27,225 nucleotides of DNA, from the IMG/VR virus record IMGVR_UViG_2541047770_000002; one strand, given 5' to 3'. The first letter of the stretch is position 1. Each line of letters starts with the position of its first letter. The translations under genes and the position numbers were made by a program. The DNA comes from a virus (Duplodnaviria; Heunggongvirae; Uroviricota; Caudoviricetes). This document shows positions 1 to 27,225 of this stretch, in pieces. The notes under the pieces are model-generated. The model had not been told where the DNA came from. It was given only the letters and a program-made list of their open reading frames with translations, and made no database searches.

Positions 1-1962
1 AACGCCGAAATATTTCAGCGCAGCCGCAAAGGCTTTATAGAGCAGGCCTGCCGGCGACCAGTTAATCAGCAACTTACCAGTTCCCACAATGCCGCCGTTA
101 AAGGCTTCCTGAATGTCAGCCCAGCGCTGTTTAAACCAACCACTGACAGCCCCCCAGTTGCGGTAGATAAGGTAAGCTGCTGCCGCGACAGCGGTGATAA
201 CGAGACCGATGGGATTCATCATCAGCGCTCGCCCAATCCAGAGAACGGCACGTGCAGCGCTCATAAAACCGCGAACGAGGCTGCCCGCCAGAACTTTGCT
301 GAGTTTCAGTCCTCCGCTGGTCAGTCGGCTGAATCCAGTGACAAGCCAGCGTAATTTGCCACCTTCTCCGAGTGCGGTAGTCAGTCGATGCCAGTTGGTC
401 CGGAGTAAAACAGCATTTTTCCAGACACTTACAAAGGGGGAAATAAGGAGATTCAGCCCCAGTTTGAGACCAACAGTCGCTATCTTAATCGCAAGGAGCG
501 CACTGATGAGCTTAAAAGCCCCACTGACAAATTGCGGGTGAGTCGCTACCCAGTGTTTTGCCCCCTGAATGAGTGGAAGCAGTTCCTGAGTCAAAGAAAT
601 AAAAGATGGAGCTAATTGATCGCCCAGCGTAATTGCCAGATCGCGACTGCTGACCATAAGTGTTTTAGTGGCTTCAAGGGGAGATTTCAGTCGCTGATCG
701 TAAGCACTGGCAAGCAAATCGTTATCCGCAGCCCTGAGAGCACCGGCACGGATCTCTCGATATCTGTCCATGTTGGCCAGCATCGGGCGGATAAATGCCA
801 TGACCTGCATATCCGCGAACATATCACCCAGACCAAAGTTTTTCGCCAGAGCCTGAAGTGCCTCATCTCTTGCCGTATCATTCTTTATTTTCATGGCTGA
901 TTTGAAGCCGGCCAGCGCTTCGGGGCTTTTGGCATTGAGGTAACGTTCTATAACACTCAACATCCCTTCAATCGGAGAGATCCCCGCAGCTTTATAACTC
1001 GCAATAGATCCCTGCAAATCAATACCCAGATCAGCAAACTGTTTCTGAGTATCGCGGGCAAAAATTTTGGTAAGAAAGTTTTTAAAATTATTGGCTGCTT
1101 CGTCGGTGGAACCTGCACCGATTTTTGCTATCTGGAGACTGGCCCCGATTTCAGCAACAGCCTCTTTTCCACTGGCAATACCCGCCATCATTGGGGCCAG
1201 GGACTGCATCCACTTGACCTGATCCGGGATTTCAAATGACCCCTGGTCACCGGCATAAGCCATAATATTCTGAACGGCACCAAAATCTCTGGCCGCACCT
1301 TTCAGGGAGTTTTGCCAGACTGCGGCCACTTTTGCCCAGTCCTGAGCAGACGTGCGTGTTGCCGTTGCCGCGCGGGCAATATCCGGCATCAGAAAACCGA
1401 TATCTGACACATTATCAATATTGTCGCTGATGAGTGAACCCACCGCCTCCTGCAGCTCATCCTGATACTGATTGTATTTAAGCGCCCAGCCTTTTATCTG
1501 TCCGGCAAGTCCATCCCGCGTTTTATTGTCATATTTTGCGGTGATCGACATATCAATCATTTTGTCCTGAAAAGACATGGACTGCTGAACGGCAGGGGAA
1601 ACCGTATGATAAACAGTCTGTGCCATGCCATACGCTTCAATCCCCTGACCATACAGCGCCATGCGGTTAGCTTTCAGCGCATCACTGGTAGCGGATGCCG
1701 CTGACAGACGGCGCTGCTGGCGCTCAATTTGCTCCATGGTGCGGCTTACCCGCAGCAGCTCGCTGTTGAGATGCTGCATCCGGGAAGAACCCAGTTGACC
1801 ATAACGTTCTGTTGCACGGGTTAAAGCGTTCTGACGTTCCTGCAGGCGGCGTGAGGTATCGCTCAGGGAATCAAGCGCACGGCGGGTACCGCTCATTGCA
1901 GAACGGAATGTGCTACCAATCATCCCGCCGATAACAACGCCGACTGAAAACTGTCCCGACAT
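1..1962 (-). CDS. Phage tail tape measure protein (N-terminal part; gene continues past window start)
   Basis: ATG at 1962 preceded by GGAGG; translation MSGQFSVGVVIGGMIGSTF... stays open to position 1 in this frame (checked by hand near 600-660 and 1090-1962); Ala/Gln-rich coiled-coil composition; sits after tail chaperone pair as in Mu-like and P2-like tails. Not in ORF track because no stop codon lies inside the window. Confidence 0.75.
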   Translation of the reverse strand, partial: MSGQFSVGVVIGGMIGSTFRSAMSGTRRALDSLSDTSRRLQERQNALTRATERYGQLGSSRMQHLNSELLRVSRTMEQIERQQRRLSAASATSDALKANRMALYGQGIEAYGMAQTVYHTVSPAVQQSMSFQDKMIDMSITAKYDNKTRDGLAGQIKGWALKYNQYQDELQEAVGSLISDNIDNVSDIGFLMPDIARAATATRTSAQDWAKVAAVWQNSLKGAARDFGAVQNIMAYAGDQGSFEIPDQVKWMQSLAPMMAGIASGKEAVAEIGASLQIAKIGAGSTDEAANNFKNFLTKIFARDTQKQFADLGIDLQGSIASYKAAGISPIEGMLSVIERYLNAKSPEALAGFKSAMKIKNDTARDEALQALAKNFGLGDMFADMQVMAFIRPMLANMDRYREIRAGALRAADNDLLASAYDQRLKSPLEATKTLMVSSRDLAITLGDQLAPSFISLTQELLPLIQGAKHWVATHPQFVSGAFKLISALLAIKIATVGLKLGLNLLISPFVSVWKNAVLLRTNWHRLTTALGEGGKLRWLVTGFSRLTSGGLKLSKVLAGSLVRGFMSAARAVLWIGRALMMNPIGLVITAVAAAAYLIYRNWGAVSGWFKQRWADIQEAFNGGIVGTGKLLINWSPAGLLYKAFAAALKYFGV

Positions 1963-2037
1963 AGTGGTTAACCTCCGGGGAAGGTGAAAAGACGTGAGGG
2001 GATAACGCAGAACAGCCGCTACTGGCGGCTGTCTGTA

Positions 2038-2295
2038 CTATGATTTGTCGCCGTACTCGCTTTTTATTTGCTCTTCAGCCTGCTCCAGCCACATCTCCAG
2101 ATCGTCAGTATCGAGGGCATCAATCTCCCCCGGCTGAAACCGGAACCATCTCGCCAGCAGCCCCTGCGCCTGCGTCAGCGCCCTGGTTGCTCTCACCCAT
2201 CCCCGTGATGAGCTGAAATCGTTTCTGTAACTGCAGGTAATCAGCCAGATCCATATTGTCGAGATCTTCCGGGAGAAGACCAGTACTGCGGGCAA
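2038..2295 (-). CDS. Second-frame ORF overlapping tail assembly chaperone (candidate frameshift extension, T-like)
   Basis: 85-codon ORF overlapping 2120..2295 of the chaperone gene in the +1 frame; acidic C-terminal tail; located between chaperone and tape measure as in conserved G/GT arrangement. Confidence 0.35.
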   Translation of the reverse strand: MPAVLVFSRKISTIWIWLITCSYRNDFSSSRGWVRATRALTQAQGLLARWFRFQPGEIDALDTDDLEMWLEQAEEQIKSEYGDKS

Positions 2296-2455
2296 TCAGC
2301 GGTTCGTCCCAGTCTGCCGGGTTTTTGCTGATTTTGCGCACCTGCTTCAGGTCTTTTACCGTCAGGCGTTTCAGTTCAACCAGCTCAATTCTGGTGCCTG
2401 CAGCAGTGGTGAAGGGATAAGACAATTTAAAAGTATCGGATGGGGTCTGTGACAT
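2120..2455 (-). CDS. Tail assembly chaperone (G-like)
   Basis: 111 aa, ATG at 2455 with AGGAG 7 nt upstream; position between tail tube and tape measure; overlapped by second-frame ORF. Confidence 0.55.
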   Translation of the reverse strand: MSQTPSDTFKLSYPFTTAAGTRIELVELKRLTVKDLKQVRKISKNPADWDEPLIARSTGLLPEDLDNMDLADYLQLQKRFQLITGMGESNQGADAGAGAAGEMVPVSAGGD

Positions 2456-2531
2456 GATTGTGCTCCTGTGTAAGTTCAGGGCAGTATGTCGGGAGAAGCG
2501 CGTGACGGATATTAAAGGAGATTAAGAAGAA

Positions 2532-2545
2532 GGGGCCGGAGCCCC
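2532..2545 (-). terminator. GC hairpin GGGGC-CGGA-GCCCC followed on minus strand by UUCUUCUUAAU; possible intrinsic terminator or attenuator inside tail operon
   Basis: Perfect 5-bp GC stem with 4-nt loop 7 nt downstream of the stop of ORF 2553..2834; T-rich tract follows in the minus-strand direction. Confidence 0.3.
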
Positions 2546-2552
2546 TGTGATG

Positions 2553-2834
2553 TCAGCAAGTGCGAAACCCCTTGCAGTTACGCAGGAAAGCGATGAGAAG
2601 CGTCTTTCCCTCAGATTTGCCGATGCCGGAGAACCAGTGGTCGGGAGGCTCCCATGCTTCAATCAAATCCGCCAGTTTGCGGGCCTTTGAACGTGTGCAG
2701 TCAATCGGGTCATTGGTTTTACGGGTATTAAAAAGGGTTTCCACCCCCGGAATATCAAGGAGGGTAAACCACGTACCATTTGACATGCCCAGTGCCGCAC
2801 ATCGTCCTCCTTTATCCGTCAGTTCAACACTCAC
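2553..2834 (-). CDS. Hypothetical tail-operon protein
   Basis: 93-codon ORF (GTG start at 2834 with GGGGG upstream, or ATG at 2786) filling the gap between tail tube and chaperone on the operon strand; no recognisable motif. Confidence 0.4.
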   Translation of the reverse strand: MSVELTDKGGRCAALGMSNGTWFTLLDIPGVETLFNTRKTNDPIDCTRSKARKLADLIEAWEPPDHWFSGIGKSEGKTLLIAFLRNCKGFRTC

Positions 2835-2836
2835 CG

Positions 2837-3358
2837 TCAGCCCCCGATATTGATACGGTAGTCAGTCAGTTGATCAACACCGCCGACCCGGAAGATGTTG
2901 GCCAGATAGTCCAGTTGCAGCAGCTCTTCACCATCCAGTACCTGTCTGATATACGTGCAGGTGAAGCTACTGGAGAACTCGGCGTTCTCGTGCTGTTTGA
3001 ACGTCCCCAGCGGGTTCTTCTTGAACATAATCGTCAGGAAGGTGACCAGCGGGATTTCGTCAATCAGCCCCTGCGAGCTGTAGCGCTGGACGCTGGAACG
3101 ACACTGCAGTGCCAGCGACCTGTACGGGTTCGCGGCAGACAGCATCGCATCGCGGTAAAAGCTGTTCCATTTGATTTCGCCTTCCAGTTTGTCAAAACCA
3201 GCCGGGAGTTCCACCTTACCCACCATCCCCAGCGCCTTGTGTTCCTGCATAATCATGGAGACATCGGGGAGTTTAACTTCCTCAGCCCGTCCCAGCAGGT
3301 TAGTACCATCCAGATAGATGTTGGCATTCGTGATGCGGTTTATCTCAATCTTTGACAT
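2837..3358 (-). CDS. Phage tail tube protein (contractile tail)
   Basis: 173 aa, start ATG overlaps sheath stop (TGATG); immediately downstream of sheath gene; size and position typical of Mu M / P2 FII-type tube proteins. Confidence 0.7.
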   Translation of the reverse strand: MSKIEINRITNANIYLDGTNLLGRAEEVKLPDVSMIMQEHKALGMVGKVELPAGFDKLEGEIKWNSFYRDAMLSAANPYRSLALQCRSSVQRYSSQGLIDEIPLVTFLTIMFKKNPLGTFKQHENAEFSSSFTCTYIRQVLDGEELLQLDYLANIFRVGGVDQLTDYRINIGG

Positions 3359-4785
3359 CAGTTGCCCCCTTTCAGGGTTAACAGGTATTCCGAGGTGATC
3401 TCAGTCTCAAACGTCAGTCGCTCCAGCGGCGGTGGTGGCGTATATTTGTAGCTCAGCAACAGGTGCCCGGCGGCCAGCTCCGTCTCCGGATTGCGGGCCG
3501 GATCAAACCAGCAACGGAAGCCCAGTACCGCACCATCACCAGTCATTTTGCGACCGTAGGCGTTGACCGACTCCGTCAGTGCATCAATCAGCGCCTGAGT
3601 AATCGGCATGTCGATGTACTGCTGGCTGAAATAACGAATGGACTCGTTGATCACATCACCGGTGCGGCGAACGTTCTCAAAGTTACGCATATGGGTGACC
3701 GTTGGCCATGCTGCCGTCCGGTTACCCCACAGACGAAGGCCGCTGCCGTAACTGCTGAATACCGTGGTGATCCCCTGTTCGTTAAGCAGGTTCACCTCAC
3801 TCTGCGGGTCATCAATCATCGCGGACAGCTGGCGCTCCACGCCGGTGATCCCCAGAATCTCCTGATTGGAGGATGACCACCAGTAGCCCTTGTCCAGATC
3901 GACTCTGGCACGCAGACCTGCTGCACGCTGGCTGAGCGGCTCCAGACGCTCTGTGTTTGTCACCGGGTCATATACCTTCACATGCGGATAGCACAGACGG
4001 ACGCGGTCGGAGCTGGTATTGAAGTTGATGGTGCCTTCCGGGCCACGACCTGCCAGAGCCTGTGCAAAGGTGGTACCGACAGGCGCATCAATGTAGGTTA
4101 CCGCGCCCAGCTTCTCTGCCATGGCGATAAGCTCAACTGCGACACTCTTCTGGGTGCAGAACACCGGCGCAATCAGAATTTTGGCGAAATAGCCGTACAG
4201 GTTGAAGCTGTCGTTAAGCAGCTTCATGCCGGTTCGGTTTCCGGCGCTGTTCACCCCGCCGATGATGTCCGCCGCAGTCACCTTCGACGGGTCCGCGTAC
4301 TCATAGCTCACCTTCACGCTGCCACCGGCCTCAATAGCCTTGCCCAGGTTCGTGAGCACACCCGCCTGCGCATCAACACGGTAGTCCGTGTTCGCCGTGT
4401 GGGAGGTGCTGCCTTCACTGTTTTTCACCACCACATTAGCGACAACCGGATGCGCCAGTCTGGCCTGCCCTGTCGATTTGTCAAAGGTAACCACCTCATC
4501 CTCGATCGCCGTTTTATGTTTCGCCGGGTCGAGGACGTTAATGACCAGAACGGTACCTGCACCATGGTCATAAATCGCATCCAGCGCCTGCGGAATGGTA
4601 AAGCCGGTGAACTGGCTGCCAAATGCCGCTGCGTCTTTCTCAGACAGGCACTGTACCAGCGTATTGACATCCCCCATCGGGGCGGTACCAATCAGGCCAA
4701 TAACGGCAGATTTCACCGTTTTAACCGGGCGGGCACCGTTTTCCACCTCAATGGTTTCGGGACCATGCAGATAGTTAGCTGCCAT
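3358..4785 (-). CDS. Phage tail sheath protein
   Basis: 475 aa, GGAGG 6 nt before ATG at 4785; size, position ahead of tube gene and sequence character match Mu L-type sheath proteins. Confidence 0.85.
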   Translation of the reverse strand: MAANYLHGPETIEVENGARPVKTVKSAVIGLIGTAPMGDVNTLVQCLSEKDAAAFGSQFTGFTIPQALDAIYDHGAGTVLVINVLDPAKHKTAIEDEVVTFDKSTGQARLAHPVVANVVVKNSEGSTSHTANTDYRVDAQAGVLTNLGKAIEAGGSVKVSYEYADPSKVTAADIIGGVNSAGNRTGMKLLNDSFNLYGYFAKILIAPVFCTQKSVAVELIAMAEKLGAVTYIDAPVGTTFAQALAGRGPEGTINFNTSSDRVRLCYPHVKVYDPVTNTERLEPLSQRAAGLRARVDLDKGYWWSSSNQEILGITGVERQLSAMIDDPQSEVNLLNEQGITTVFSSYGSGLRLWGNRTAAWPTVTHMRNFENVRRTGDVINESIRYFSQQYIDMPITQALIDALTESVNAYGRKMTGDGAVLGFRCWFDPARNPETELAAGHLLLSYKYTPPPPLERLTFETEITSEYLLTLKGGN

Positions 4786-5029
4786 GGGTGTCCTCCGTTT
4801 TCACTTCGCTGTCACTGCTGCTTCTGCGCTTTGGTGACTGCACAGCCGGTGTGCCGGCGGGTTTAGTCTCTTCAGGTACCGGCGTCAGATGTTTCAGCGC
4901 CACCAGTACCTTCACGTAGTCATGCTCCTCCGGCAGGGAAACCGTCTTCCCCGGCCAGAGCAGGATTTCGGTTCCGTCCGACAGCGTGACGCCGCTGGCC
5001 GGGCCGGAATAGCGGTATTCTTTCATCAC
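4775..5029 (-). CDS. Small hypothetical virion-module protein
   Basis: 84 aa ORF bridging gp37-like gene and sheath gene on the operon strand; overlaps sheath start by 11 nt. Confidence 0.45.
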   Translation of the reverse strand: MMKEYRYSGPASGVTLSDGTEILLWPGKTVSLPEEHDYVKVLVALKHLTPVPEETKPAGTPAVQSPKRRSSSDSEVKTEDTHGS

Positions 5030-5490
5030 TCGCTTTCCTCATAGTTCACTTCGGTTAACAGCGGGCCGGACGGTAAATCGCTGTCTTCGATAAAGACGCT
5101 TTCAGTCGCGAAGTCGAGGGCGTACTGCCACAGCCCCCTGACTTCACCGATAAACACCTCGCGGGTCAGCCAGATACGGCGGCGGCAGCCGGGCGGGGTG
5201 TGGCCACCGAGAATGCGGCGGACAGCATCCAGGACATTAATCGCCCCTTTTTTACCGTTGAGCTGGCGGAAGACCACCGTGACGCAGAGCTGGATAGTCT
5301 GAGACTGGATCACCGCACCGGTATCATCCGGCCTGTCAAAGCGCGAACCGGCATAGCTCAACAGCAACGCGCCAACCGGATGGTTCAGGCGATATTCAGC
5401 CGGTTTCTCCGGGAAGTACTCCACCTGCAGTTGCGGCAGCTTCTCGCGTAACCGGGCCAGTACCGCATCAAGGACGGGCAGAACGTTCAT
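5026..5490 (-). CDS. Mu gp37-like virion protein
   Basis: 154 aa; ATGA overlap with upstream gene; conserved position between head-completion genes and sheath in Mu-like late operons. Confidence 0.5.
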   Translation of the reverse strand: MNVLPVLDAVLARLREKLPQLQVEYFPEKPAEYRLNHPVGALLLSYAGSRFDRPDDTGAVIQSQTIQLCVTVVFRQLNGKKGAINVLDAVRRILGGHTPPGCRRRIWLTREVFIGEVRGLWQYALDFATESVFIEDSDLPSGPLLTEVNYEESE

Positions 5491-5936
5491 CAGTATTTCT
5501 CCAGTAAACCGTCACGACCGCCGAAAGTGGCCGGGCGACTGCGTACACGAAACTCGCCAGGCTCAGGCACATCTTTCTGAGTGGACGGCAGCCCCAGCGT
5601 GAGCCTGTTATCACGTAACTCCCTGAGTTGCCGCAGCGCTTCTTTGTGGTCATCCTTTACCGTATCCGGGAGGTCACCTTCCGGGCGGCGGGCGTAGAGC
5701 CGGTAACGGACCAGCGTGATGGCAATGTCCCGCAGAACAGTCGGTATCTCTGCCAGTGGCAGGATATAGCGTCCGCGCAGATGGGCATCAATCAGCTCGT
5801 CGGCATAGCGGATACAGCTGTCCACCACACGGGTATTCACTGTTGCAGGCGAGTCGAAGTCCATCTCTTCACTGGTGAGCTCGATAAGCGTCCGCTCCGG
5901 CACCTGCGCAAGCAAATCCTCCAGGGTGCAGTACAT
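5490..5936 (-). CDS. Mu gp36-like head-tail joining protein
   Basis: Start taken at internal ATG 5936 (MYCTLEDLL...) directly after the stop of the upstream gene (TGAcATG); the longer track ORF to 6098 would overlap the upstream gene. Confidence 0.5.
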   Translation of the reverse strand: MYCTLEDLLAQVPERTLIELTSEEMDFDSPATVNTRVVDSCIRYADELIDAHLRGRYILPLAEIPTVLRDIAITLVRYRLYARRPEGDLPDTVKDDHKEALRQLRELRDNRLTLGLPSTQKDVPEPGEFRVRSRPATFGGRDGLLEKY

Positions 5937-5937
5937 G

Positions 5938-6276
5938 TCACACCCCGCGCAGGATACGAATGACGTCGCCTTCACCCCCGGCTTCATCAAGTGCAATACC
6001 ACAGGATTTACCGTCGCCGGACTGCGGCACGGCTCTGGCCTGAGCATCTGACTGAACAGCCACACCACGGCTGACAGCGGCCCCGGCCTCGACAGCAATA
6101 ATGCCCAGAACGCTCACCGGCGTGCTGTCGCCGGTAACAGCATCCACTTCGGCAACCCCGAGCGCTGCGGCACCGGCTTTACAGGGGGTATTATCTGCCC
6201 CGACAAAACGCTGCTGTGCCAGTGCTGCCCCTGCCGTTACGGTTGTGATCAGAATGACCTGCTGAGTGGTTCCCAT
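5938..6276 (-). CDS. Small Ala/Gly-rich head-associated protein
   Basis: 112 aa ORF immediately downstream of major capsid gene on same strand; low-complexity Ala/Gly/Val composition. Confidence 0.4.
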   Translation of the reverse strand: MGTTQQVILITTVTAGAALAQQRFVGADNTPCKAGAAALGVAEVDAVTGDSTPVSVLGIIAVEAGAAVSRGVAVQSDAQARAVPQSGDGKSCGIALDEAGGEGDVIRILRGV

Positions 6277-6285
6277 AACGCCTCC

Positions 6286-7239
6286 TTATTTACTGATACC
6301 GGTAATGAGATACCCGGCATCGCCACCAACCACGGCGACTTTGTAGATATCGGTATAACGGCAGTACTTCACCTTGCCACCGGCTCCGTCGTATTTGTCG
6401 GCAACAGGCATCCCCTTACGACGCAGGGTGTAGCCGAAGGACGGCTCGTTCTCGTCCGCGCTGTCCGCCCCCGGCTGCGGTTTGCCGACATAGTGCAGCA
6501 TCAGATTGTCTCCCCAGATATCCGCCGGCACGCTGTTCTTATCCATTGCCGCTTTCATGGACGGCAGGGAGACCGGGGCACCGATGACGATCTCTTCGAT
6601 CTGAAAGAGGTCCTGCAGGATTTCTGTGGTGATGCGCTTGCGTTCGTTGGCTCCGATGGCGGCCTGAATCGCCGGGTGGAACTTCAGCAGCGCCATCACG
6701 CCGGCCCCCATGGTCATCAGGTTAGGACGCAGCCCCGTGGCCGTACGGACCGCTTCCATACCGGCTTCAATCACCCCGATGGGGTCCCCCTTACCACCGG
6801 CCCAGCGATCACTGGCTGTCAGTTTTTTGACGTGCCCGGTACGGTAGACCTTTTCATCCTGAGCCAGACGGGCAGCGATAAGTTCACGGCGCAGGTTCAC
6901 GCCATTCGTGGCGCGACGGATGGCCTTGCTCTCTTCGTTAAACATGGACTCCGCCTGCTCGCGATAGTCCACCGGCGCAGCCAGATCGTGTTCACCCAGC
7001 ACCAGGTCCAGCGTGCCTGTTTTTTCACGGACCAGAACATTGCTGTCCGCCCCGACGGCACGCTCGGTGTCATATTCCACAAAGGCGGTTTTCCCGAAGG
7101 TCGGTACACGCACGCCTTCCTTGTCCGTCAGCACGACGGGGAAAATACGTTCGCCGATGAATGCGGCATTTTTATAGCCACGGGCGATACTGGTCAGTAC
7201 CGGATCAACGACACGTTTACCTTTTAAGTAATCAGACAT
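6286..7239 (-). CDS. Major capsid protein (Mu T-like)
   Basis: 317 aa; AAGGAGA before ATG at 7239; follows protease/scaffold gene as in Mu I-T order. Confidence 0.75.
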   Translation of the reverse strand: MSDYLKGKRVVDPVLTSIARGYKNAAFIGERIFPVVLTDKEGVRVPTFGKTAFVEYDTERAVGADSNVLVREKTGTLDLVLGEHDLAAPVDYREQAESMFNEESKAIRRATNGVNLRRELIAARLAQDEKVYRTGHVKKLTASDRWAGGKGDPIGVIEAGMEAVRTATGLRPNLMTMGAGVMALLKFHPAIQAAIGANERKRITTEILQDLFQIEEIVIGAPVSLPSMKAAMDKNSVPADIWGDNLMLHYVGKPQPGADSADENEPSFGYTLRRKGMPVADKYDGAGGKVKYCRYTDIYKVAVVGGDAGYLITGISK

Positions 7240-7253
7240 GCTCTCTCCTTAAA

Positions 7254-8369: not shown

Positions 8370-8583
8370 TTTGCTGTCCCGCGTTATGTTGTCGGAGACA
8401 GTTTGTGAGAAATGCAGGCCCGGCGATTTTAATCTGCTTTAGAAAACATCAGGGGAGAAGGACAGGGAAAGCAATGCGGTGAACCGGAGGCGGTTATAAA
8501 ACAGAGGCTGTAAAGCCTTTATAAAGGTAATACAGCCCCTCATTCGCTGGCAATGATAAATCACCCGCCTGAAGAGAGAAAAC
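8370..8583 (-). promoter_or_regulatory. Non-coding gap inside late operon: likely terminator plus internal late promoter upstream of protease gene
   Basis: 214 bp without convincing ORF between G-like and I-like genes in an otherwise overlapping gene array; Mu has a C-dependent promoter before I at the equivalent position. Confidence 0.3.
8492..8522 (-). terminator. Putative intrinsic terminator after G-like gene
   Basis: On minus strand AAAGGCU-UUAC-AGCCUCU stem-loop followed by GUUUUAUAA. Confidence 0.3.
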
Positions 8584-9042: not shown

Positions 9043-9044
9043 TG

Positions 9045-17380: not shown

Positions 17381-17420
17381 ATCGCCCCACAGGAATGCGC
17401 TGTGAGCCGACCAAGGTTCA

Positions 17421-17466
17421 GTCAGTCTCGCGAGACCTGACCAGACTGCCATATTTTTTAATAATT
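17421..17466 (+). promoter_or_regulatory. Candidate dam promoter with overlapping palindromic operator
   Basis: Imperfect 21-bp palindrome GTCAG-TCTCGCGAGA-CCTGAC (17421..17441; central 10 bp perfectly palindromic) overlapping a -35-like TGACCA, 17-bp spacer, -10-like ATAATT, about 20 nt before the dam ATG. Confidence 0.3.
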
Positions 17467-17484
17467 GTAAAAGGCTTACAGATT

Positions 17485-18252: not shown

Positions 18253-18277
18253 GCTCAGAAGGAGGTAAGTAGTCTTG

Positions 18278-18309
18278 CATAACAATGCACCTGATGGTGC
18301 ATTGTTATG
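18278..18309. terminator. Bidirectional terminator-type hairpin between convergent dam and membrane-protein gene
   Basis: 14-bp perfect inverted repeat CATAACAATGCACC / GGTGCATTGTTATG with 4-nt loop TGAT; 26 nt after dam stop and overlapping the stop of the minus-strand gene. Confidence 0.5.
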
Positions 18310-19595: not shown

Positions 19596-19717
19596 ACGAT
19601 TAATCCTTAACGCGGAAAGTTCAGATGGTTAGTGCAAACAGCACATCCTACTGTTTAAATCAGCGCATATAACGAAGAGGTTTGATAACCTTGTCAATTG
19701 TTCTCATTGGGAATAGA
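19596..19717 (-). promoter_or_regulatory. Intergenic region between repressor and 297-aa gene; candidate internal promoter
   Basis: Minus-strand consensus -35 TTGACA (plus 19692..19697) with imperfect -10 candidates 17-19 nt downstream; could allow expression independent of the repressor promoter. Confidence 0.25.
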
Positions 19718-20134
19718 TTAACCCACATTTTTTAACCGCTCAATCGTTGCGGATAATTCCTTCAGTTGTTTTTCCATCTCGATCACTCGCTGTTTTTCCG
19801 CAGCGCCTCGCAGAAGATCGTTACGAACCTCGGGGTCTAGCTGCTTTAAAAGCTCAAGCATAGTAAGGTCAGCTTGGCTAAACTGCACTTGCGTCGGAGT
19901 TACGTCTACTTCTTTTGATAAACCTTGTTTTCTACCTGTTAGCAACCAATCTAAAGAAACCCCCTTTTCTTCTGCGATGTTTATGCAAATTGCATAAGGC
20001 ACAGAATCACGCTTCCTCCAACTTGCAAGTGTCTGCCTATTGACGTTAAGCGCTCTTGCCAACTCACTATCATTCTCTGCTTGGAATAGTGACATTAACC
20101 GGGAAAGCACAGCGTTAACATCTTTGTTATTCAT
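19718..20134 (-). CDS. Prophage repressor, CI-type helix-turn-helix (no peptidase domain)
   Basis: 138 aa from ATG 20134 (track start 20149 is GTG); HTH segment LARALNVNRQTLASWRKRDSVPYAICINIAEEKGVSLDWLLTG typical of phage CI-type repressor N-terminal domains; divergent from the ner-A-B early operon. Confidence 0.7.
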   Translation of the reverse strand: MNNKDVNAVLSRLMSLFQAENDSELARALNVNRQTLASWRKRDSVPYAICINIAEEKGVSLDWLLTGRKQGLSKEVDVTPTQVQFSQADLTMLELLKQLDPEVRNDLLRGAAEKQRVIEMEKQLKELSATIERLKNVG

Positions 20135-20149
20135 TTTGCGTAATTCCAC

Positions 20150-20222
20150 TTGATTTATTTATTTTGAATAAGTACATTTATTCATATTGAGTACATGATA
20201 ACCCAACTGGAACTATCCGCAT
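20150..20222. promoter_or_regulatory. Repressor / early-operon operator-promoter region
   Basis: 20-bp palindrome TGAATAA-GTACAT-TTATTCA at 20165..20184 (perfect 7-bp arms); second GTACAT copy at 20191..20196; lies between divergent repressor and ner-like starts. Confidence 0.5.
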
Positions 20223-20447
20223 ATGAATAAACAACAAGTTCGGGCACGACTAGTTGAACGAGGCAGTAGCTTGCGCCAGTTCGCGCTTAACGCAGGCTAT
20301 GAGCCACGAACAGTCACACAGGCAGTCAGTCGCTGGGCTGGTAAAAGTGAACTACCACGTGGTCGTTTGACTTATCGGATTTTGCGAGATCTATCGGTTG
20401 CAATAGGTAAAGAAGTTACCCCCGGTATCCTTAAGGAGGTGTCATGA
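20223..20447 (+). CDS. ner: Ner-like DNA-binding protein (early-operon regulator)
   Basis: 74 aa; segment LRQFALNAGYEPRTVTQAVSRWAGKSELP resembles Mu Ner (LSALSRQFGYAPTTLANALERHWPKGEQ, from memory); first gene of operon ending in transposase and B. Confidence 0.65.
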   Translation: MNKQQVRARLVERGSSLRQFALNAGYEPRTVTQAVSRWAGKSELPRGRLTYRILRDLSVAIGKEVTPGILKEVS

Positions 20448-20752
20448 ATAAACCAAATACATCAAGCGCAGGTACCCGTATTTTGCGTGTTCTTAAGGCG
20501 TTACGTGGCCACGCTCTGAACGGTATCTCCAACGGTGAACTGGCGGCAGCACTGCACGAGTCACCAGCAAACATTAATCGGGCACTCAACACCCTCATTG
20601 AAGAAGGGCTGGCCCTGAAACTGGAGAATGGACGTTTTGCACCGGGCATCCAGTTACTGCAGATCGCCATGGCTCACAGTAACGAGATGGCACGAGCGCA
20701 GGATCGTATTAACGAAATCAACCAACGTGTCATTTCAGGTAGTCGTTTATAA
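20444..20752 (+). CDS. Small winged-helix DNA-binding protein (IclR-like HTH)
   Basis: 102 aa; ATG overlaps ner stop (ATGA), AAGGAGG upstream; pattern RILRVLKAL...ISNGELAAALHESPANINRALNTLIEEGLA resembles IclR-type N-terminal wHTH. Confidence 0.45.
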   Translation: MNKPNTSSAGTRILRVLKALRGHALNGISNGELAAALHESPANINRALNTLIEEGLALKLENGRFAPGIQLLQIAMAHSNEMARAQDRINEINQRVISGSRL

Positions 20753-20762
20753 GGAGTAATCA

Positions 20763-21674
20763 ATGGGACGTACCAAATCACCAATGTCCACTGATCTGAA
20801 TGCTGAGGTGCCGCTGTCTGATGATCTCAACATCAGTCTTAATACCATGGCACAACACCGCGTGGAGATCATGCAGCAGTTCGGCGATGGTCTGCCTTAT
20901 GAACGTGATCGCATTGTTCACGAAGCACGCTTTTATATGGCACAAAGTGCTGAGGCCATGCTAGAGGCAGGTAAACGACTGATAATACTGAAAGAAAATG
21001 AACCATATGGTGATTTCATAAATATTGTCGAGTCTGAATTATCAATGTCAAAGCGTACTGCACAGGTAATGATGCAGGCATCAATAAAATATTTATCACC
21101 ACAACTTGAGTCAAAAGCGCAGACGTTTGCGCTTTTAGGAAAAGCCAAATTATTCGAGTTAATGACGGAAGACGATGAAAACCTTGCCGAACTGGCTGAT
21201 GGTGGCACTGTTGCCGGCCTGACGCTTGACGACGTTGATCGCATGTCAGTACGCGAACTTCGCCAGGCCCTGCGCGAAGCGCGCGAAACCAACGCAGCAC
21301 AACAGCGCGTACTCGCCGATAAAAATGAAAAAATTGATTCTCTCTCTACCAGACTGGAAAAGAAATCCCGTATTCAGCCGCCTGAGCCTGATGAGGAGGT
21401 TAAGAAGCTGCGGGCGGAAGTGACAGCATTAGCGGTTGAGGCGGAATCTGCTATCGCCGTCCGACTGTCCAGCGCTTTTGAGACACTGTGCGCATATTGT
21501 GCTGAAAACATGATTGATACTCCCAGAGACTTCATGGCAGGCCTGGTCTGTCAACTGGAAAGCACAGCGCGTAGCCTGCGCTCCACATTTGACCTGCCGG
21601 ACGAGCCAACAGGCAATGCAGCGCCTTCATGGCTGACTGAGCCGACGCCACAGATTAACGGGCTGGAGGCATAA
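20763..21674 (+). CDS. Hypothetical coiled-coil early protein
   Basis: 303 aa, AAGGAG RBS; central coiled-coil region; a gene of similar character sits before the transposase in several Mu-like prophages (recollection, unverified). Confidence 0.5.
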   Translation: MGRTKSPMSTDLNAEVPLSDDLNISLNTMAQHRVEIMQQFGDGLPYERDRIVHEARFYMAQSAEAMLEAGKRLIILKENEPYGDFINIVESELSMSKRTAQVMMQASIKYLSPQLESKAQTFALLGKAKLFELMTEDDENLAELADGGTVAGLTLDDVDRMSVRELRQALREARETNAAQQRVLADKNEKIDSLSTRLEKKSRIQPPEPDEEVKKLRAEVTALAVEAESAIAVRLSSAFETLCAYCAENMIDTPRDFMAGLVCQLESTARSLRSTFDLPDEPTGNAAPSWLTEPTPQINGLEA

Positions 21675-21677
21675 CCA

Positions 21678-23447
21678 ATGAATGCTGCCCTGACTGAACG
21701 ACTGGTTTATGTCGCCCGCGCGGCACGTGACGCGGGGCATGGTAAACGCGGTGCAATATACGACGCTGCCTGTGCTGAACTTGGCATGTCCCGCGCCACT
21801 CTGCTGCGCAGGCTGAAGGAGGTCTCTGTGACTGATAAACGCAAAAAACGCGCCGATGCCGGGCGCAGCGCCCTGACCCGCGACGAAGCCGCGCTGATAT
21901 CTGCCACACTGCGTGAGGCCACCCGCAAGAACGGTAAGCGTCTCTATTCCATCGCAGATGCAGTGGAAACCCTGCGGGCTAACGGCTTTATCACCGCAGG
22001 CAGAACAGATGAAACCACCGGTGAGTTTTTCCCGTTGTCTGAAGATGCCATCAGCCGTGCTCTGCGTAACTATGGCCTGCACCCGGAACAACTGGATGCC
22101 CCTGCACCACATACCGAAGTGGCCAGTCTGCATCCCAATCATGTCTGGCAGATTGACGCCTCACTCTGCACGCTTTACTACCTGAGCAATGGACATAAAG
22201 GGCTGCAGGTGATGGACAGCGCGAAGTTCTACAAGAACAAGCCCGCTAACCTTGCCCGTATCGCCAGTGACCGCGTGTGGAGTTACGAGATTACCGACCA
22301 TGCCAGCGGCTGGATTTACGTTGAGTATGTGACGGGCGCGGAATCCGGTGAGAACCTGTGTTCTGTGCTTATCAACGCCATGCAGGAGCGTGGCGGCGCA
22401 GACGTGCTGCACGGCGTGCCGAAAATACTCTATCTCGACCCCGGCTCGGCAAACACCGCGGGTATGACGAAAAACATGTGCCGCTCACTGGGCATCGACC
22501 TGATAGCGCACAAGCCGCATAACGCCCGCGCCACCGGACAGGTGGAAAAGGCGCGGGACATTATCGAACGCAAGCTGGAGCCGGGTCTGAAGTTCCGGCC
22601 GGTTCACAGTCTGGAAGAACTCAACGCGCTGGCCGCGAAATGGCGCAGCCACTTTAACGCCACGGCTGTTCACAGCCGCCACGGTAAAACCCGCACGGAT
22701 ATCTGGCTGAAGATTACTGCTGAGCAGCTGAAAAAAGCGCCTCCCGTTGAGGTATGTCGTGAACTGGCTGTGGCGGCACCAGAACTCCGCAAAGTCACGC
22801 CAAAACTTCGTGTCTCGTTCCGGGGCACTGAATTTGACGTATCAACGGTACCGGGCGTACTGGTTGGTGAAAAACTGATGATTACCCGTAACCCATGGCG
22901 CAGCGATGTGGCACAGGTGGTTCTGACCGGTGAGGACGGCCACGAGACGTTCTTCCTGGTCGAAGAGGTCAGAAAGAACGAGTTTGGCTTTGCTGAAGGC
23001 GCGGCGGTATTTGGCGAAAGTTACAAAGCCCTGCCGGAAACCCCGGCACAGATGGCGGCAAAAGAAACCGAAGCGCTGGTTACCGGTACAGACAACGCCG
23101 CAGATGCAGCCGCCGCACGCAAGGCGAAGGCGCTGCCGTTCGGCGGGCGGCTTGACCCGTATAAACATATCGACGACACCACACTTCCGGCCTATATGCC
23201 GAAGCGTGGTCAGGCCTCTGACGTACGCGGGCCGCGCACTGAACAACGTCCCATGACTCATGTGGAGGCCGCGAAAGCCCTGCGCGATAAGTTCAGCGCC
23301 GACGGCCTTACCTGGACGCCGGAACATTACCGCCAGTTAACGGCACAGTACCCGGACGGCGTACCGGAAGCCGCACTGGATGAAGTCATGGCCACGCTGA
23401 CCACACCGGCCCGCAGCAGTGTTATCAGCATTGTTAACGGCAACTGA
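21678..23447 (+). CDS. DDE transposase (Mu A-like)
   Basis: 589 aa; GGAGG 9 nt before ATG; immediately followed by AAA+ ATPase partner; HVWQIDAS-type segment consistent with DDE integrase/transposase core. Confidence 0.8.
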   Translation: MNAALTERLVYVARAARDAGHGKRGAIYDAACAELGMSRATLLRRLKEVSVTDKRKKRADAGRSALTRDEAALISATLREATRKNGKRLYSIADAVETLRANGFITAGRTDETTGEFFPLSEDAISRALRNYGLHPEQLDAPAPHTEVASLHPNHVWQIDASLCTLYYLSNGHKGLQVMDSAKFYKNKPANLARIASDRVWSYEITDHASGWIYVEYVTGAESGENLCSVLINAMQERGGADVLHGVPKILYLDPGSANTAGMTKNMCRSLGIDLIAHKPHNARATGQVEKARDIIERKLEPGLKFRPVHSLEELNALAAKWRSHFNATAVHSRHGKTRTDIWLKITAEQLKKAPPVEVCRELAVAAPELRKVTPKLRVSFRGTEFDVSTVPGVLVGEKLMITRNPWRSDVAQVVLTGEDGHETFFLVEEVRKNEFGFAEGAAVFGESYKALPETPAQMAAKETEALVTGTDNAADAAAARKAKALPFGGRLDPYKHIDDTTLPAYMPKRGQASDVRGPRTEQRPMTHVEAAKALRDKFSADGLTWTPEHYRQLTAQYPDGVPEAALDEVMATLTTPARSSVISIVNGN

Positions 23448-23457
23448 GGAGGGAAAC

Positions 23458-24624
23458 ATGCTGGTACTGAAGCAGCAACTGAAAGAGGCCCGTATTCCAC
23501 AGGCGGTGGTGGCGAGAGCTGTCGATGTTTCTGAGGCCACGCTGGCCCAGATTGTGAATCATAACGCGTGGCCCCGCACCAGCCCCGGAGAAGTGCGCCG
23601 GCGTCTTGCGTCCTGGCTGGAAAGTCAGGGGATTGATACAACGAAGAGTTTTGATGCTGTACAGGGCGCGGCCACGCCCCGTACAGCGGGTACCACAGAT
23701 AAAACGAGCCTCAGTGAGGAAGAGAATATGTTACTCAAAAAACAGGTGTTATTTCCAGCAACCAAAAAAGCGTTTGGTCTTTTCCGTGACCCGTTCGCCG
23801 ACGAAGCCATGCAGGGTTCTGATGATGTGTTCACCACCCCGGACATTCGCTACGTGCGTGAGGCGCTGTACCAGACAGCCCGTCATGGTGGGTTTATGGC
23901 CGTCATCGGTGAGTCCGGTGCGGGTAAATCCACGCTGCGCCGCGACCTGACTGAACGTATCAACCGCGAGAATGCGCCGGTAATTGTTATCGAGCCATAC
24001 ATCATCGCTATGGAAGACAACGATGTGAAAGGGAAAACCCTGAAGGCAGCAGCTATTGCCGAAGCCATTATCAGTACCATCGCACCACTGGAAAGCATCA
24101 GACGCAGTCAGGACGCCCGTTTTCGCCAGTTGCATCGCGTCCTGAAAGACAGCAGCCAGGCGGGGTTCAGCCACGTTCTGGTGATTGAGGAGGCCCACAG
24201 TCTGCCCATTCCGACACTGAAACACCTCAAACGCTTTTTTGAGCTGGAGTCCGGTTTCAAAAAACTGCTGTCCATCGTGCTGATTGGCCAGCCGGAACTG
24301 GCGACAAAACTGTCTGAACGCAATATGGAAGTCCGTGAAGTCGTTCAGCGCTGTGAGGTGGTCGAACTTCTGCCTCTGGACAATAACCTTGAAGAATTTC
24401 TGACGTTCAAACTGCAACGGGCCGGTAAACAGCTGACGGACATTATGGACGCCGGTGCAGTGGATGCCATACGTGCCCGCCTGAGCAATCCGGGAAGTCA
24501 CCGTAAAAATATGGTCAGCCTGCTGTATCCGCTGGCCGTCAGTAACCTGGTAATAGCCGCCATGAATCTGGCCGCTGAAATCGGGGTTCCACAGGTCAAC
24601 GCTGACGTTGTCAAAGGGGTTTAA
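23458..24624 (+). CDS. Transposition target-DNA activator ATPase (Mu B-like, AAA+)
   Basis: ATG 23458 with GGAGGG RBS directly after transposase stop; N-terminal HTH-like segment then Walker A GESGAGKST and Walker B-like HVLVIEEAH. Confidence 0.8.
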   Translation: MLVLKQQLKEARIPQAVVARAVDVSEATLAQIVNHNAWPRTSPGEVRRRLASWLESQGIDTTKSFDAVQGAATPRTAGTTDKTSLSEEENMLLKKQVLFPATKKAFGLFRDPFADEAMQGSDDVFTTPDIRYVREALYQTARHGGFMAVIGESGAGKSTLRRDLTERINRENAPVIVIEPYIIAMEDNDVKGKTLKAAAIAEAIISTIAPLESIRRSQDARFRQLHRVLKDSSQAGFSHVLVIEEAHSLPIPTLKHLKRFFELESGFKKLLSIVLIGQPELATKLSERNMEVREVVQRCEVVELLPLDNNLEEFLTFKLQRAGKQLTDIMDAGAVDAIRARLSNPGSHRKNMVSLLYPLAVSNLVIAAMNLAAEIGVPQVNADVVKGV

Positions 24625-24643
24625 TAATGAAATCCACCACAGG

Positions 24644-24810
24644 TGCGTATTTTCATGAAAGGAGATCACTCAATAACTTCCATCGAGATCGGGTAATAAC
24701 ATTTGAACAGATCGCTGAATAACATCGATGGAGATCACTTTTGACTCATTTTGTTATTCAGTGATCTCCATCAATGTTATTGGAACTTCACAGGTGTGTT
24801 GATCTGTATC
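24644..24810. repeat. Left terminal inverted repeat region of IS with multiple internal repeats
   Basis: GGAGATC-containing motifs at 24661, 24685, 24730 and inverted at 24763; six GATC sites within about 160 bp. Confidence 0.6.
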
Positions 24811-24836
24811 TTTTGCCATTCCGGTAAAGGATACCT

Positions 24837-26378
24837 ATGCCAACAGTTCCAATTTCTATGAGAAAACTTAAAGAAATTCTTAGGCTTAAATACGGTGTTG
24901 GACTCAGCCATCGACAAATTGGTCGTAGTCTTGCAATCTCCCCTTCCGTTGTATCCAGATATGCTAATCGGGCGGCTCAACTTGGCATAAAGCAGTGGCC
25001 CTTACCTACAGGATGGGATGATACAAAACTAAAACATGCGTTCCTTCAGACCCAGGTTAAGATGAAGAAGCACTCTCTGCCTGACTGGGCTACAGTACAC
25101 CGGGAACTGCGTAATAAATGCGTGACGCTGCAGCTACTCTGGGAAGAATACTGTGAGCGTAATCCAGGCGGTTTTTACAGCTATAACCATTACTGCCGGA
25201 TGTACCGTGAATGGCTCAAAACCACTTCACCATCAATGCGTCAGGTACATAAAGCTGGCGAAAAACTTTTCGTTGATTACTGTGGACCTACCGTTGGCGT
25301 TACCGACCCTGAGACCGGAGAAATAAAAACTGCTCAGGTCATCGTAGCTGTTCTCGGGGCATCAAGTTACACATGGGCAGAGGCCACCTGGTCTCAGCAG
25401 CTTGAAGACTGGGTGATGAGTCATGTTCGCTGCTTCCAGTGGTTGGGTGGCGTTCCTGAACTTGTTGTTCCGGACAATCTGAAAAGCGCCACATCCAGGG
25501 CATGTAAGTATGATCCTGACGTTAACCCTACCTACCAGCAGATGCTTGAGCATTATAATGTCGCAGTTTTGCCTGCGCGGCCACGTAAACCGAAAGATAA
25601 AGCCAAAGCTGAAGTTGGCGTTCAGGTTGTTGAACGCTGGATCATGGCCCGAATCAGGCATGAGATCTTCTACAGCCTTGCATCGCTTAATCAGCGCATT
25701 CGGGAGTTGCTGGAAAGACTGAATAACAAAATAATGCAGAAGTTGGGTTATTCACGTGCAGAACTCTTCATCCAGCTTGATAAACCCGCACTGAAGCCTC
25801 TTCCTGAAGCCAGTTACAGTTACACCCTGGTGAAGAAAGTCAGAGTTCATGCCGATTACCACGTGGAAATCGACAAACATTACTACTCGGTTCCATGTTC
25901 GCTGTTAGGCCAGCAACTGGAAGCATGGATCTCCGGAGAACTGGTAAGACTCTTCAATCAGGGGCAGGAGGTTGCTGTGCACCCGCGCAAGCGTACTTAT
26001 GGCTACAGTACCCGCAACGAGCACATGCCTGAAGCTCATCGACAGCATGCCACCTGGACGCCAGAGCGTCTTCTGGAATGGGCGGGGCACATAGGCAGTG
26101 AAACTCATAGTTATGTGCTTCATATACTGAACTCTCGTCCACATCCGGAACAAAGCTATCGCTTCTGCCTTGGACTCCTGAACCTTCATAAAAAATACAG
26201 TAAAGCCAGACTTAATGCAGCATGTGCAAGAGCTCTGAAAACAAAGGTATGGCGTCTGTCAGGTATTAAATCGATCCTGGAAAAAGGTCTGGATAAACAA
26301 CCTGTTCAGGATCCAAAACCAGATCTGTTATCCACGATGGAACACGAAAACGTACGCGGCAGTGAGTATTACCACTGA
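24837..26378 (+). CDS. istA: IS21-family transposase IstA
   Basis: 513 aa; N-terminal HTH (GLSHRQIGRSLAISPSVVSRY), DDE-type core; followed 11 nt later by istB. Confidence 0.85.
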   Translation: MPTVPISMRKLKEILRLKYGVGLSHRQIGRSLAISPSVVSRYANRAAQLGIKQWPLPTGWDDTKLKHAFLQTQVKMKKHSLPDWATVHRELRNKCVTLQLLWEEYCERNPGGFYSYNHYCRMYREWLKTTSPSMRQVHKAGEKLFVDYCGPTVGVTDPETGEIKTAQVIVAVLGASSYTWAEATWSQQLEDWVMSHVRCFQWLGGVPELVVPDNLKSATSRACKYDPDVNPTYQQMLEHYNVAVLPARPRKPKDKAKAEVGVQVVERWIMARIRHEIFYSLASLNQRIRELLERLNNKIMQKLGYSRAELFIQLDKPALKPLPEASYSYTLVKKVRVHADYHVEIDKHYYSVPCSLLGQQLEAWISGELVRLFNQGQEVAVHPRKRTYGYSTRNEHMPEAHRQHATWTPERLLEWAGHIGSETHSYVLHILNSRPHPEQSYRFCLGLLNLHKKYSKARLNAACARALKTKVWRLSGIKSILEKGLDKQPVQDPKPDLLSTMEHENVRGSEYYH

Positions 26379-26389
26379 TACGGGATCCA

Positions 26390-27139
26390 ATGATGAATCA
26401 TCTTTACGAACAACTGACCGCACTTAAACTCACCGGCTTCCGTGATGCGCTTAAAAAGCAACTTGCTCAGCCGGGCACATACCAGGAGCTGGGCTTCGAA
26501 GAACGCCTGTCATTACTGACAGCAGAAGAACTAACCTGCCGTGAAAACAGGAAGGCAGAGCGTCTGATCAAACATGCACGGTTCAGACTTAATGCTGAGT
26601 TATCAAAGCTGGATTATCGTAACAATAGAGGGCTGGACAGGGCCCTCATCCGTTCACTCAGTCAGGGAAACTGGTTAACCCTGAAACAAAATATTTTACT
26701 GACCGGGGCCACCGGCAGCGGTAAAACGTTCCTGGCATGTGCACTTGGTCATAATGCCTGCCGACAGGGATACAAGGTCTACTATTATCGCCTTAAAGCG
26801 CTGATGGAACAGTGCTATCAGGGGCATGCTGATGGAAGATACAGCAAACTTTTGACCAGGCTGAATAATAGCGATCTGCTGCTTCTGGATGACTGGGGGC
26901 TGGAACCTCTCTCATCAGAACAGCGTAGCGACCTGCTGGAAATAGTGGATCTGATGTACCAACGAGGCTCAATCATCGTAGTGAGCCAGTTGCCGGTGGA
27001 AAACTGGTACAAAATGATCGGAGACTCCACACATGCGGATGCCATCCTAGATCGACTGGTTCATGGCAGTATCAAGATCGAACTTAAAGGAGAATCAATG
27101 CGGAAAATACAATCTCCGTTGACCGAAGGAGATCAGTGA
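26390..27139 (+). CDS. istB: IS21-family helper ATPase IstB
   Basis: 249 aa; Walker A LLTGATGSGKTFLACALG, Walker B LLLLDDWG; canonical IstB size. Confidence 0.85.
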   Translation: MMNHLYEQLTALKLTGFRDALKKQLAQPGTYQELGFEERLSLLTAEELTCRENRKAERLIKHARFRLNAELSKLDYRNNRGLDRALIRSLSQGNWLTLKQNILLTGATGSGKTFLACALGHNACRQGYKVYYYRLKALMEQCYQGHADGRYSKLLTRLNNSDLLLLDDWGLEPLSSEQRSDLLEIVDLMYQRGSIIVVSQLPVENWYKMIGDSTHADAILDRLVHGSIKIELKGESMRKIQSPLTEGDQ

Positions 27140-27164
27140 AGGTAATTTAAAAACGGTTCTGTGA

Positions 27165-27224
27165 AAGTGACACGAACCGATCTCCATCGATGTTACTCAC
27201 CGATCTCCTTCACGGTAATACGCA
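27165..27224. repeat. Right terminal inverted repeat region of IS
   Basis: Reverse complement TTGCGTATTACCGTGAAGGAGATCGGTGAGTAACATCGATGGAGATCGG aligns with left end (24643..24700). Confidence 0.6.
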
Positions 27225-27225
27225 A

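Follow-up and report, generated by a model that had tools for sequence, protein, structure and literature searches.

In Mu, the early and late genes are read in the same direction, and only c lies on the minus strand (AF083977). The stretch of DNA considered here, 27,225 nucleotides of the Caudoviricetes virus record IMGVR_UViG_2541047770_000002 (hereafter the window), carries an early transposition operon that runs rightward and a lysis, head and tail operon that runs leftward, with a switch region between them that holds dam and several accessory genes. This raises the question of whether divergent arms are native to this phage or result from a rearrangement of the Mu order. An earlier note on this DNA described the layout and its contrast with Mu, pointed to BcepMu-like transposable phages that have divergent arms and an SLT endolysin, and alternatively considered a rearrangement, possibly mediated by an insertion sequence (IS). 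Our analysis speaks strongly for a native arrangement. Very probably, the window is a 24.6 kb internal piece (positions 1-24644) of a ~38.2 kb BcepMu-type transposable myovirus prophage of E. coli, followed by a copy of ISEc12, and the divergent arms are inherited. Such an architecture is already on record for transposable phages of the BcepMu and B3 types and is frequent in E. coli. The main value of the result is hence correct annotation, namely as a native divergent layout of the BcepMu/B3 type and neither as a scrambled Mu nor as two prophages.

The divergent arms and their counterpart in BcepMu

The gene map was built from the open reading frame (ORF) listing, the RefSeq annotation of the 100%-identical prophage of E. 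coli EC5654, and scans with Pfam, NCBIfam, PHROG and PADLOC. ORF listing, RefSeq annotation and family scans agree that the late genes form an uninterrupted minus-strand run from 15841 down to position 1 and that the early transposition operon occupies the plus strand at 20223-24624, as the earlier note had described. The switch between the arms (15972-20134, ~4.3 kb) contains dam, five accessory genes and a CI-type repressor. The sign of the GC (guanine-cytosine) skew flips near 15 kb, in step with the flip of the coding strand. The landmarks of both arms, including genes for small helix-turn-helix (HTH) proteins, are as follows.

2120-5029, minus strand: P2-like tail genes (BcepMu similarity, RefSeq names)
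5026-13480, minus strand: head and head-completion genes (colinear matches to BcepMu gp27-gp38, 44-67% identity)
13480-15841, minus strand: lysis cassette that opens the late arm (gene order as in BcepMu gp21-26)
14114-14764, minus strand: Rz-like spanin (PHROG E 7e-92; 32% identity to BcepMu gp23)
14748-15488, minus strand: SLT transglycosylase endolysin with a hydrophobic N-terminus (Pfam SLT E 1.8e-14; 61% to BcepMu gp22)
15491-15841, minus strand: holin (Pfam Holin_2-3 E 1.5e-41; 50% to BcepMu gp21)
19718-20134, minus strand: CI-type prophage repressor (Pfam Phage_CI_repr E 1.2e-17; PHROG transcriptional repressor; positional counterpart of BcepMu gp17)
20223-20447, plus strand: BcepMu gp16-like small HTH protein (TIGR04111 'BcepMu gp16 family' E 7e-7, below the curated cut-off)
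20444-20752, plus strand: HTH regulator
20763-21674, plus strand: DUF3102 protein
21678-23447, plus strand: rve DDE transposase of Tn552/IS1604 type (Pfam rve; 68% to BcepMu gp09 over 581 amino acids, E 0)
23458-24624, plus strand: ExeA/AAA_22 ATPase, MuB analogue (Pfam AAA_22 E 4e-20; 59% to BcepMu gp08)

In tblastn searches against BcepMu, 19 of the 20 late ORFs tested and four of six early ORFs find a match, and these matches are strictly colinear and in the same relative orientation (31-76% amino acid identity). Those of the early operon fall in order on gp12, gp10, gp09 and gp08, with 34%, 40%, 68% and 59% identity. Against Mu, only TerL, portal, F and G match by tblastn; no early gene does, and no relationship to MuA or MuB is detected. 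The whole-genome alignment that the earlier note had proposed as a check points the same way. With blastn, 10 colinear high-scoring segment pairs cover both arms in a single orientation (window 2836-24368 against BcepMu 24481-3722), and the alignment contains no internal inversion relative to BcepMu.

The annotation of BcepMu shows the same organization seen from the other strand. Genes from gp01 (Mor/C) to gp13, including the gp09 transposase and the gp08 ATPase, lie on the minus strand, while the plus strand carries the gp17 repressor followed by holin, SLT, Rz/Rz1, head and P2-like tail genes. The content of the original BcepMu and B3 genome papers is given here as relayed in PMC2771037 and PMC5977238. 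[quoted passage not shown] The parallel with BcepMu drawn in the earlier note is therefore supported.

Several of the traits that define BcepMu-like phages are found in the locus. The transposase is of the gp09 rve type rather than MuA and is directly followed by the ExeA/AAA_22 ATPase, two divergent clusters meet at a gp16/gp17-equivalent control pair, the late cluster opens with holin-SLT-Rz, and a Mu-like head and packaging module is combined with a P2-like contractile tail (gp39 and gp40 are annotated as P2 FI and FII). Relatives of the prophage, one of them 100% identical, add TG...CA termini, repeated motifs, a target duplication and insertion at several sites. BcepMu (AY539836; Summer et al., 2004) and phiE255 share the divergent clusters with control genes at the interface and a holin-SLT-Rz opening, the Mu-like terminase, portal, F and G with P2-like sheath and tube, the Tn552/IS1604-type rve transposase followed by an ExeA-type ATPase, a single Mor/C-family gene at one end, and TG...CA ends with paired (G/C)(A/C)GATAWWT motifs. 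Judged by these comparisons, membership of the BcepMu family in the broad sense is clear.

BcepMu and the E. coli prophage differ in several respects. Their hosts belong to different bacterial classes, the switch cargo is gp13-20 in BcepMu and dam plus five genes of unknown function here, the repressor has no BLAST-detectable similarity to gp17, and BcepMu carries an acyltransferase at its tail end. The E. coli relatives, in turn, carry an invertase and an invertible tail-fibre cassette, whereas BcepMu is described in PMC2771037 as lacking a tail-fibre inversion system. All differences from BcepMu are already present in deposited, annotated records.

The likeness to Mu itself (AF083977) is of a more general kind. 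Shared are TG...CA ends, a probable lifestyle of replicative transposition, a repressor divergent from the early operon, early genes that follow one another as regulator, transposase, ATPase, gam, gemA and Mor, homologues of TerL (49%), portal, F and G, and several late promoters including one between G and I. In contrast to the arms described here, the early and late genes of Mu are co-directional, its endolysin is a lysozyme-type SAR enzyme rather than an SLT enzyme, its tail genes are its own rather than P2-like, and it has both Mor and C, whereas relatives of the window prophage have a single Mor/C-family gene. With divergent arms and no early gene that matches Mu, the phage falls outside Muvirus (Mu, D108, SfMu).

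A single transposable unit and the alternatives to it

Positions 1-24644 of the window equal NZ_CP095086.1 3482034-3506677 of E. coli EC5654 (L003 4502-29145 in the extracted EC5654 locus, L003) at 100.000% identity, without one mismatch in 24,644 bp. The strain from which the window derives is hence very closely related and differs here by the IS alone. Past the limits of the window, the early arm in EC5654 extends over gam and gemA to one Mor/C-family gene beside the prophage end, as it does in intact copies, and in EC5654 the host gene nagE comes next; on the late side, genes for the baseplate and tail fibres follow, and then an invertase. The EC5654 prophage measures 38,199 bp, starts with TGATGCGCCGCGCGATAAATG... 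and ends with ...CAAGTCTAATCA, and is flanked by a 6-bp duplication GAGAAG beside nagE. In strain A31 the prophage splits rlmI with the 6-bp duplication AAAAGC, in strain EE72d it splits wcaJ with the 6-bp duplication GCTATG, and strain E94 holds a fourth copy in an elf fimbrial gene; the target duplications were examined at both ends in the three independent insertions of EC5654, A31 and EE72d. The Mu target duplication is 5 bp, as against 6 bp for prophages of the EC5654 type. Furthermore, the prophage ends read TG...CA and bear paired GAGATAWWT/GCGATAAAT motifs that are spaced as in the BcepMu ends. Locating the ends by host flanks and repeats had been proposed in the earlier note, and it settles how the arms belong together: the whole ~38 kb unit is bounded by matched ends and 6-bp duplications, and thus both arms move as one transposable unit.

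The EC5654 insertion site is the loop of a terminator-like hairpin beside nagE. At the tail end of E. coli relatives, a serine invertase accompanies oppositely oriented cassettes of tail-fibre and tail-fibre-assembly genes (L004 8244-10092; L013 6179-8869; L014 3573-5343), which resembles the host-range switch of the Mu G segment.

The same phage type is widespread. Among deposited phages, megablast finds Escherichia phage PhiKM (PQ738613) at 99.4% identity (99.0-99.6% outside the immunity region) and the Klebsiella phage KP12 contig (OM835952) at ~85%. PhiKM, KP12 and the EC5654 prophage share type and layout, and none has ISEc12 after the ATPase gene. The segment across the arm junction (13500-23450) matches 643 of 5426 complete E. 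coli genomes (~12%), including ST131 strains. Of 30 rows taken at even intervals down the ranking, 29 show a colinear match over both arms, and coverage of the junction falls to 53-77% solely through the variable switch cargo. No relative with a Mu-like order was seen among the E. coli genomes and phage records compared.

Moreover, in every phage record among the tblastn matches listed for both proteins, the homologues of the transposase and of TerL lie on opposite strands. These records comprise BcepMu, phiE255, other Burkholderia phages, Ralstonia YO107_2, KP12, PhiKM and ~20 Pseudomonas B3-like phages; the divergent layout goes with this type of transposase. Pseudomonas B3 and its relatives share a homologous transposase (57% identity) on the strand opposite TerL, although they are siphoviruses with unrelated tail genes. 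In the literature, the early operon of these phages is called inverted relative to Mu and D3112. Set against Mu, repressor and early operon of the window phage have, as a block, the opposite orientation to the late genes and the ends, a family trait of ancient date that goes together with a different transposase and does not stem from a recent event. The control region lies ~12.8 kb from the nearest prophage end, as against ~1 kb in Mu. With repressor and operator this far from an end and the activator at the far end of the early arm, late control is thus expected in trans, and any end-enhancer geometry would have to be unlike that of Mu. The point about trans control has already been made in the literature, and no new question is opened here.

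A canonical Mu-order phage in which one arm was flipped by a recent, possibly IS-mediated rearrangement would also show divergent arms, and an IS21-family element, ISEc12, is indeed present at 24644-27224. However, the element sits 4.4 kb from the switch, within the early arm, as a simple insertion with a target flank, ACAGG, that agrees with the duplications at other copies, and the switch itself contains neither an IS nor long inverted repeats. The layout is identical in the IS-free EC5654, A31, E94, EE72d, Ecol_656, PhiKM, KP12 and BcepMu, and the early genes are not Mu genes, none of them matching Mu. We consider a rearrangement very unlikely, and with it falls the alternative put forward in the earlier note; ISEc12 is unrelated to the architecture of the phage because of its distance from the switch and because IS-free relatives share the layout. 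Two prophages lying side by side, one contributing the early and one the late module, would be compatible with the lower GC content of the switch (0.42-0.52 vs 0.56-0.60 elsewhere) and with a gene content there that varies between relatives. Yet in three genomes the halves of one host sequence flank the whole ~38 kb unit, the 6-bp duplications at the invertase-side and Mor-side ends match, and both ends form one matched TG...CA inverted pair. In the annotation of the EC5654 prophage, neither an integrase nor a transposase belongs to the late arm, and structural genes are missing from the early arm. Both arms also align in order with one sequenced virion genome, that of BcepMu. Such a pair of neighbours is highly improbable.

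That the arm junction might be an assembly chimera is barely conceivable. The position of both window edges, within a tandem repeat of the tape-measure gene on the left and a single base beyond the IS on the right, hints at breaks of a short-read contig, but these repeats are at the edges of the window and not in the switch; positions 1-24644 recur without mismatch in a complete chromosome, and the junction recurs in hundreds of complete genomes. Neither finding that the earlier note had named as fatal to a native divergent layout, an origin of the arms in two prophages or relatives with the canonical Mu order, was made.

Some observations weigh against assigning the locus to a BcepMu-type prophage with native divergent arms, or limit how far that assignment reaches. 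The window does not hold the whole prophage: missing are ~9.8 kb at the tail end and, from the early arm, ~3.8 kb with gam to gemA, Mor and the prophage end. Since neither prophage end nor the Mor gene is inside, the evidence for a single unit comes from relatives, including one that is 100% identical. At the nucleotide level, BcepMu can be aligned over only 9.3 kb (~38%) of the 24.6 kb prophage part, at 65-76% identity. The guideline for a genus is about 70% nucleotide identity over the genome, and by this measure strict membership of the same genus (Bcepmuvirus) is doubtful; PhiKM is filed under Bcepmuvirus in GenBank. The switch is more complex than that of BcepMu: the 242-amino-acid ORF, the 71-amino-acid ORF and dam oppose the late direction, and the accessory genes have no BcepMu homologue by tblastn. 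Finally, the promoter and operator assignments discussed below are sequence motifs only, and the 16-mer pattern was drawn from its own sites.

The switch region and the proposed control of the two arms

The switch and its candidate control sites contain the following features in addition to the repressor.

15972-16700, plus strand: 242-amino-acid ORF with a function-less PHROG match and a weak P-loop-like match
16676-17080, minus strand: 134-amino-acid ORF
17079-17294, plus strand: 71-amino-acid ORF
17485-18252, plus strand: D12-class DNA adenine methyltransferase, dam (Pfam MethyltransfD12 E 1e-29; PADLOC MTase_II E 1e-112; RefSeq 'DNA adenine methylase')
18305-19595, minus strand: two overlapping low-GC (0.42-0.44) genes of 145/153 and 297 amino acids
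20127-20193, no strand assigned: three 16-nt direct repeats, TTATTYATWTTGNRTA, candidate operators around the early promoter (repeat search)
15893-15908, minus strand: candidate late promoter or activator site upstream of the holin gene, TAACGCGCTTTAAAAT (related 16-mer elsewhere and recurrence in BcepMu; putative function)
8426-8441, minus strand: candidate second late promoter or activator site, TAAAGCAGATTAAAAT, within the 214 bp that precede the protease/scaffold-like gene

The repressor gene faces the early operon across a divergent intergenic region of 88 bp. The three direct repeats in this region (TTATTCATTTTGCGTA, TTATTTATTTTGAATA and TTATTCATATTGAGTA) are probably operators.

Upstream of both the holin gene and the protease-like gene, the E. 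coli prophage and BcepMu alike share the motif TAAMGCNSWTTAAAAK. In BcepMu, the 16-mer TAAAGCCGATTAAAAG stands upstream of holin and of gp32, the two homologous places (11486-11501 and 18813-18828), and the site at 8426-8441 in the window corresponds in position to the Mu late promoter P_I between G and I. The TAAMGCNSWTTAAAAK-type sites are candidates for late promoters dependent on an activator of the Mor/C family. As the 16-mer pattern was derived from the very sites that it matches, its exact matches are not independent and only the recurrence at homologous BcepMu positions counts. A hand-built degenerate late-promoter pattern has its own source site as sole match, the short core TTTAAWATC has three matches of which one is on the wrong strand, and a generic scan of the switch for sigma-70 promoters and terminators gives no more matches than shuffled controls. 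A weaker form of the TAAMGCNSWTTAAAAK motif precedes the tail chaperone gene (2508-2516, minus strand). A version with two mismatches, TAAACCACATTAACAG, lies upstream of dam (17299-17314, plus strand), outside the dam segment that aligns with KP12; it is a hint that dam, like mom in Mu, could be expressed late.

From the anatomy of the locus and Mu biology, the following order of events can be proposed. When repression is lifted, rightward transcription would start from the early promoter in the 88-bp region with the three repeats and would yield the gp16-like HTH protein, the second HTH protein, the DUF3102 protein, and the rve transposase and ExeA-type ATPase as functional analogues of MuA and MuB. 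In intact copies, the early transcript would run on via gam and gemA to the Mor/C-family activator gene beside the prophage end. The Mor-type activator is expected to work in trans. Leftward transcription of the late genes would then start at promoters that lie behind the repressor gene, one upstream of holin and one upstream of the protease-like gene. A diffusing activator would explain how two arms of opposite direction can be served.

None of the five accessory genes in the switch receives a function from Pfam, NCBIfam, PHROGs or PADLOC. The only matches of the 242-, 134- and 71-amino-acid ORFs are PHROGs 3787, 2266 and 4490, all of unknown function; these genes are kept in PhiKM and many E. 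coli prophages and are absent from KP12 and BcepMu. The 145/153- and 297-amino-acid genes belong to no Pfam, NCBIfam or PADLOC family. In PhiKM, KP12 and Ecol_656, other DNA takes the place of 18210-20186 or more, and the repressors differ as well. The region 18305-19595 looks like a spot of mosaic cargo and immunity genes, and the low-GC genes beside the repressor are possibly cargo for superinfection exclusion or defence. Different repressors and switch accessory genes suggest that PhiKM, KP12 and Ecol_656 are probably heteroimmune mosaic variants.

The ISEc12 insertion and the remaining features

Only the right-hand 2.6 kb of the window qualify as ISEc12, by an istA/istB pair, terminal inverted repeats and near-identity to known copies. 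The element interrupts a small gene that follows the ATPase gene.

24627-24643, plus strand: first codons of the small gene after the ATPase gene (270 nt in relatives), cut by the IS (comparison with L003 29128-29397 of EC5654)
24644-27224, plus strand: ISEc12 (IS21 family), complete (99.7-99.8% identical to annotated ISEc12 copies)
24837-26378, plus strand: istA (Pfam rve, Mu-transpos_C_2)
26390-27139, plus strand: istB (Pfam IstB_IS21)

ISEc12 has TG...CA ends with the terminal inverted repeats TGCGTATT... at both ends, and it is inserted after the sixth codon of the small gene, 19 bp past the ATPase stop codon. Short target duplications are seen in three other copies. The last base of the window, one past the right end of the IS, fits the expected duplication ACAGG; after a simple insertion, the flank beyond this end would read ACAGGTATCAACC... 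The junction of prophage and ISEc12 occurs in no complete E. coli genome of the collection.

The insertion probably cuts the early transcript off from gam, gemA and Mor. As the transcript would be severed before the Mor-type activator gene, the late arm may stay off. It is conceivable, and we offer it tentatively, that this copy keeps its repressor-controlled transposase and ATPase and is unable to switch on the late arm, making it a locked-in and possibly still transposing Mu-like element; linked to this idea is the reading of the conserved 16-mer before the holin and protease-like genes as a Mor-type activator site. If true, such a site would explain how an activator encoded at the prophage end drives an arm that points the opposite way.

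Four ISEc12 copies compared have similar target flanks (CACAGG, CAACAGG, CACATGA and CACGG), which suggests a target preference. Megablast matches that start 13-19 bp before the IS end raised the possibility of a longer IS or a shared flank, which was rejected, the alignment reflecting chance or target-preference similarity (CACAGG, CACGG). Ecol_656 was likewise rejected as a genome with the same prophage-IS junction, its ISEc12 being outside the prophage.

The remaining genes of the late arm are given below.

1-1962, minus strand: tape measure, promoter-proximal part, cut by the window start (corresponds to the RefSeq tape-measure coding sequence at L003 3251-6463 of the EC5654 locus)
2120-2455, minus strand: tail assembly protein, the tail chaperone (RefSeq name)
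2553-2834, minus strand: small ORF in the tail region
2837-3358, minus strand: tail tube (67% amino acid identity to BcepMu gp40)
3358-4785, minus strand: tail sheath (76% amino acid identity to BcepMu gp39)
4775-5029, minus strand: small ORF beside the sheath gene
within 5026-13480, listed before the capsid-like gene, minus strand: gp37-like, gp36-like and DUF2190 genes
6286-7239, minus strand: capsid-like gene
7254-8369, minus strand: protease/scaffold-like gene
8584-9042, minus strand: G gene (matches BcepMu and Mu)
9045-9866, minus strand: F gene (matches BcepMu and Mu)
9847-11343, minus strand: portal, DUF935 (matches BcepMu and Mu)
11343-12938, minus strand: TerL (63% identity to BcepMu; 49% to Mu)
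12935-13480, minus strand: TerS / Mu gp27 (Pfam Phage_Mu_Gp27 E 1e-56)
13480-13791 and 13791-14117, minus strand: two small genes of the lysis region

An embedded Rz1 was not identified in the Rz-like spanin when the protein sequences of the lysis cassette were inspected. The record OM835952.1, 'Klebsiella phage KP12 clone KP12_2', is filed under Vequintavirinae yet is a contig of a BcepMu-type temperate transposable phage, probably a prophage that was co-assembled with a lytic phage. Inside the tape-measure gene lies a tandem repeat of ~261 bp, to which window positions 1-146 belong. The EC5654 locus has further copies at L003 4241 and 3980 (repeat region 3980-4647) with 95% and 92% identity. 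In PhiKM, a sequencing gap occupies this place, and both the gap and the repeat at the window start resemble breaks of short-read assemblies.

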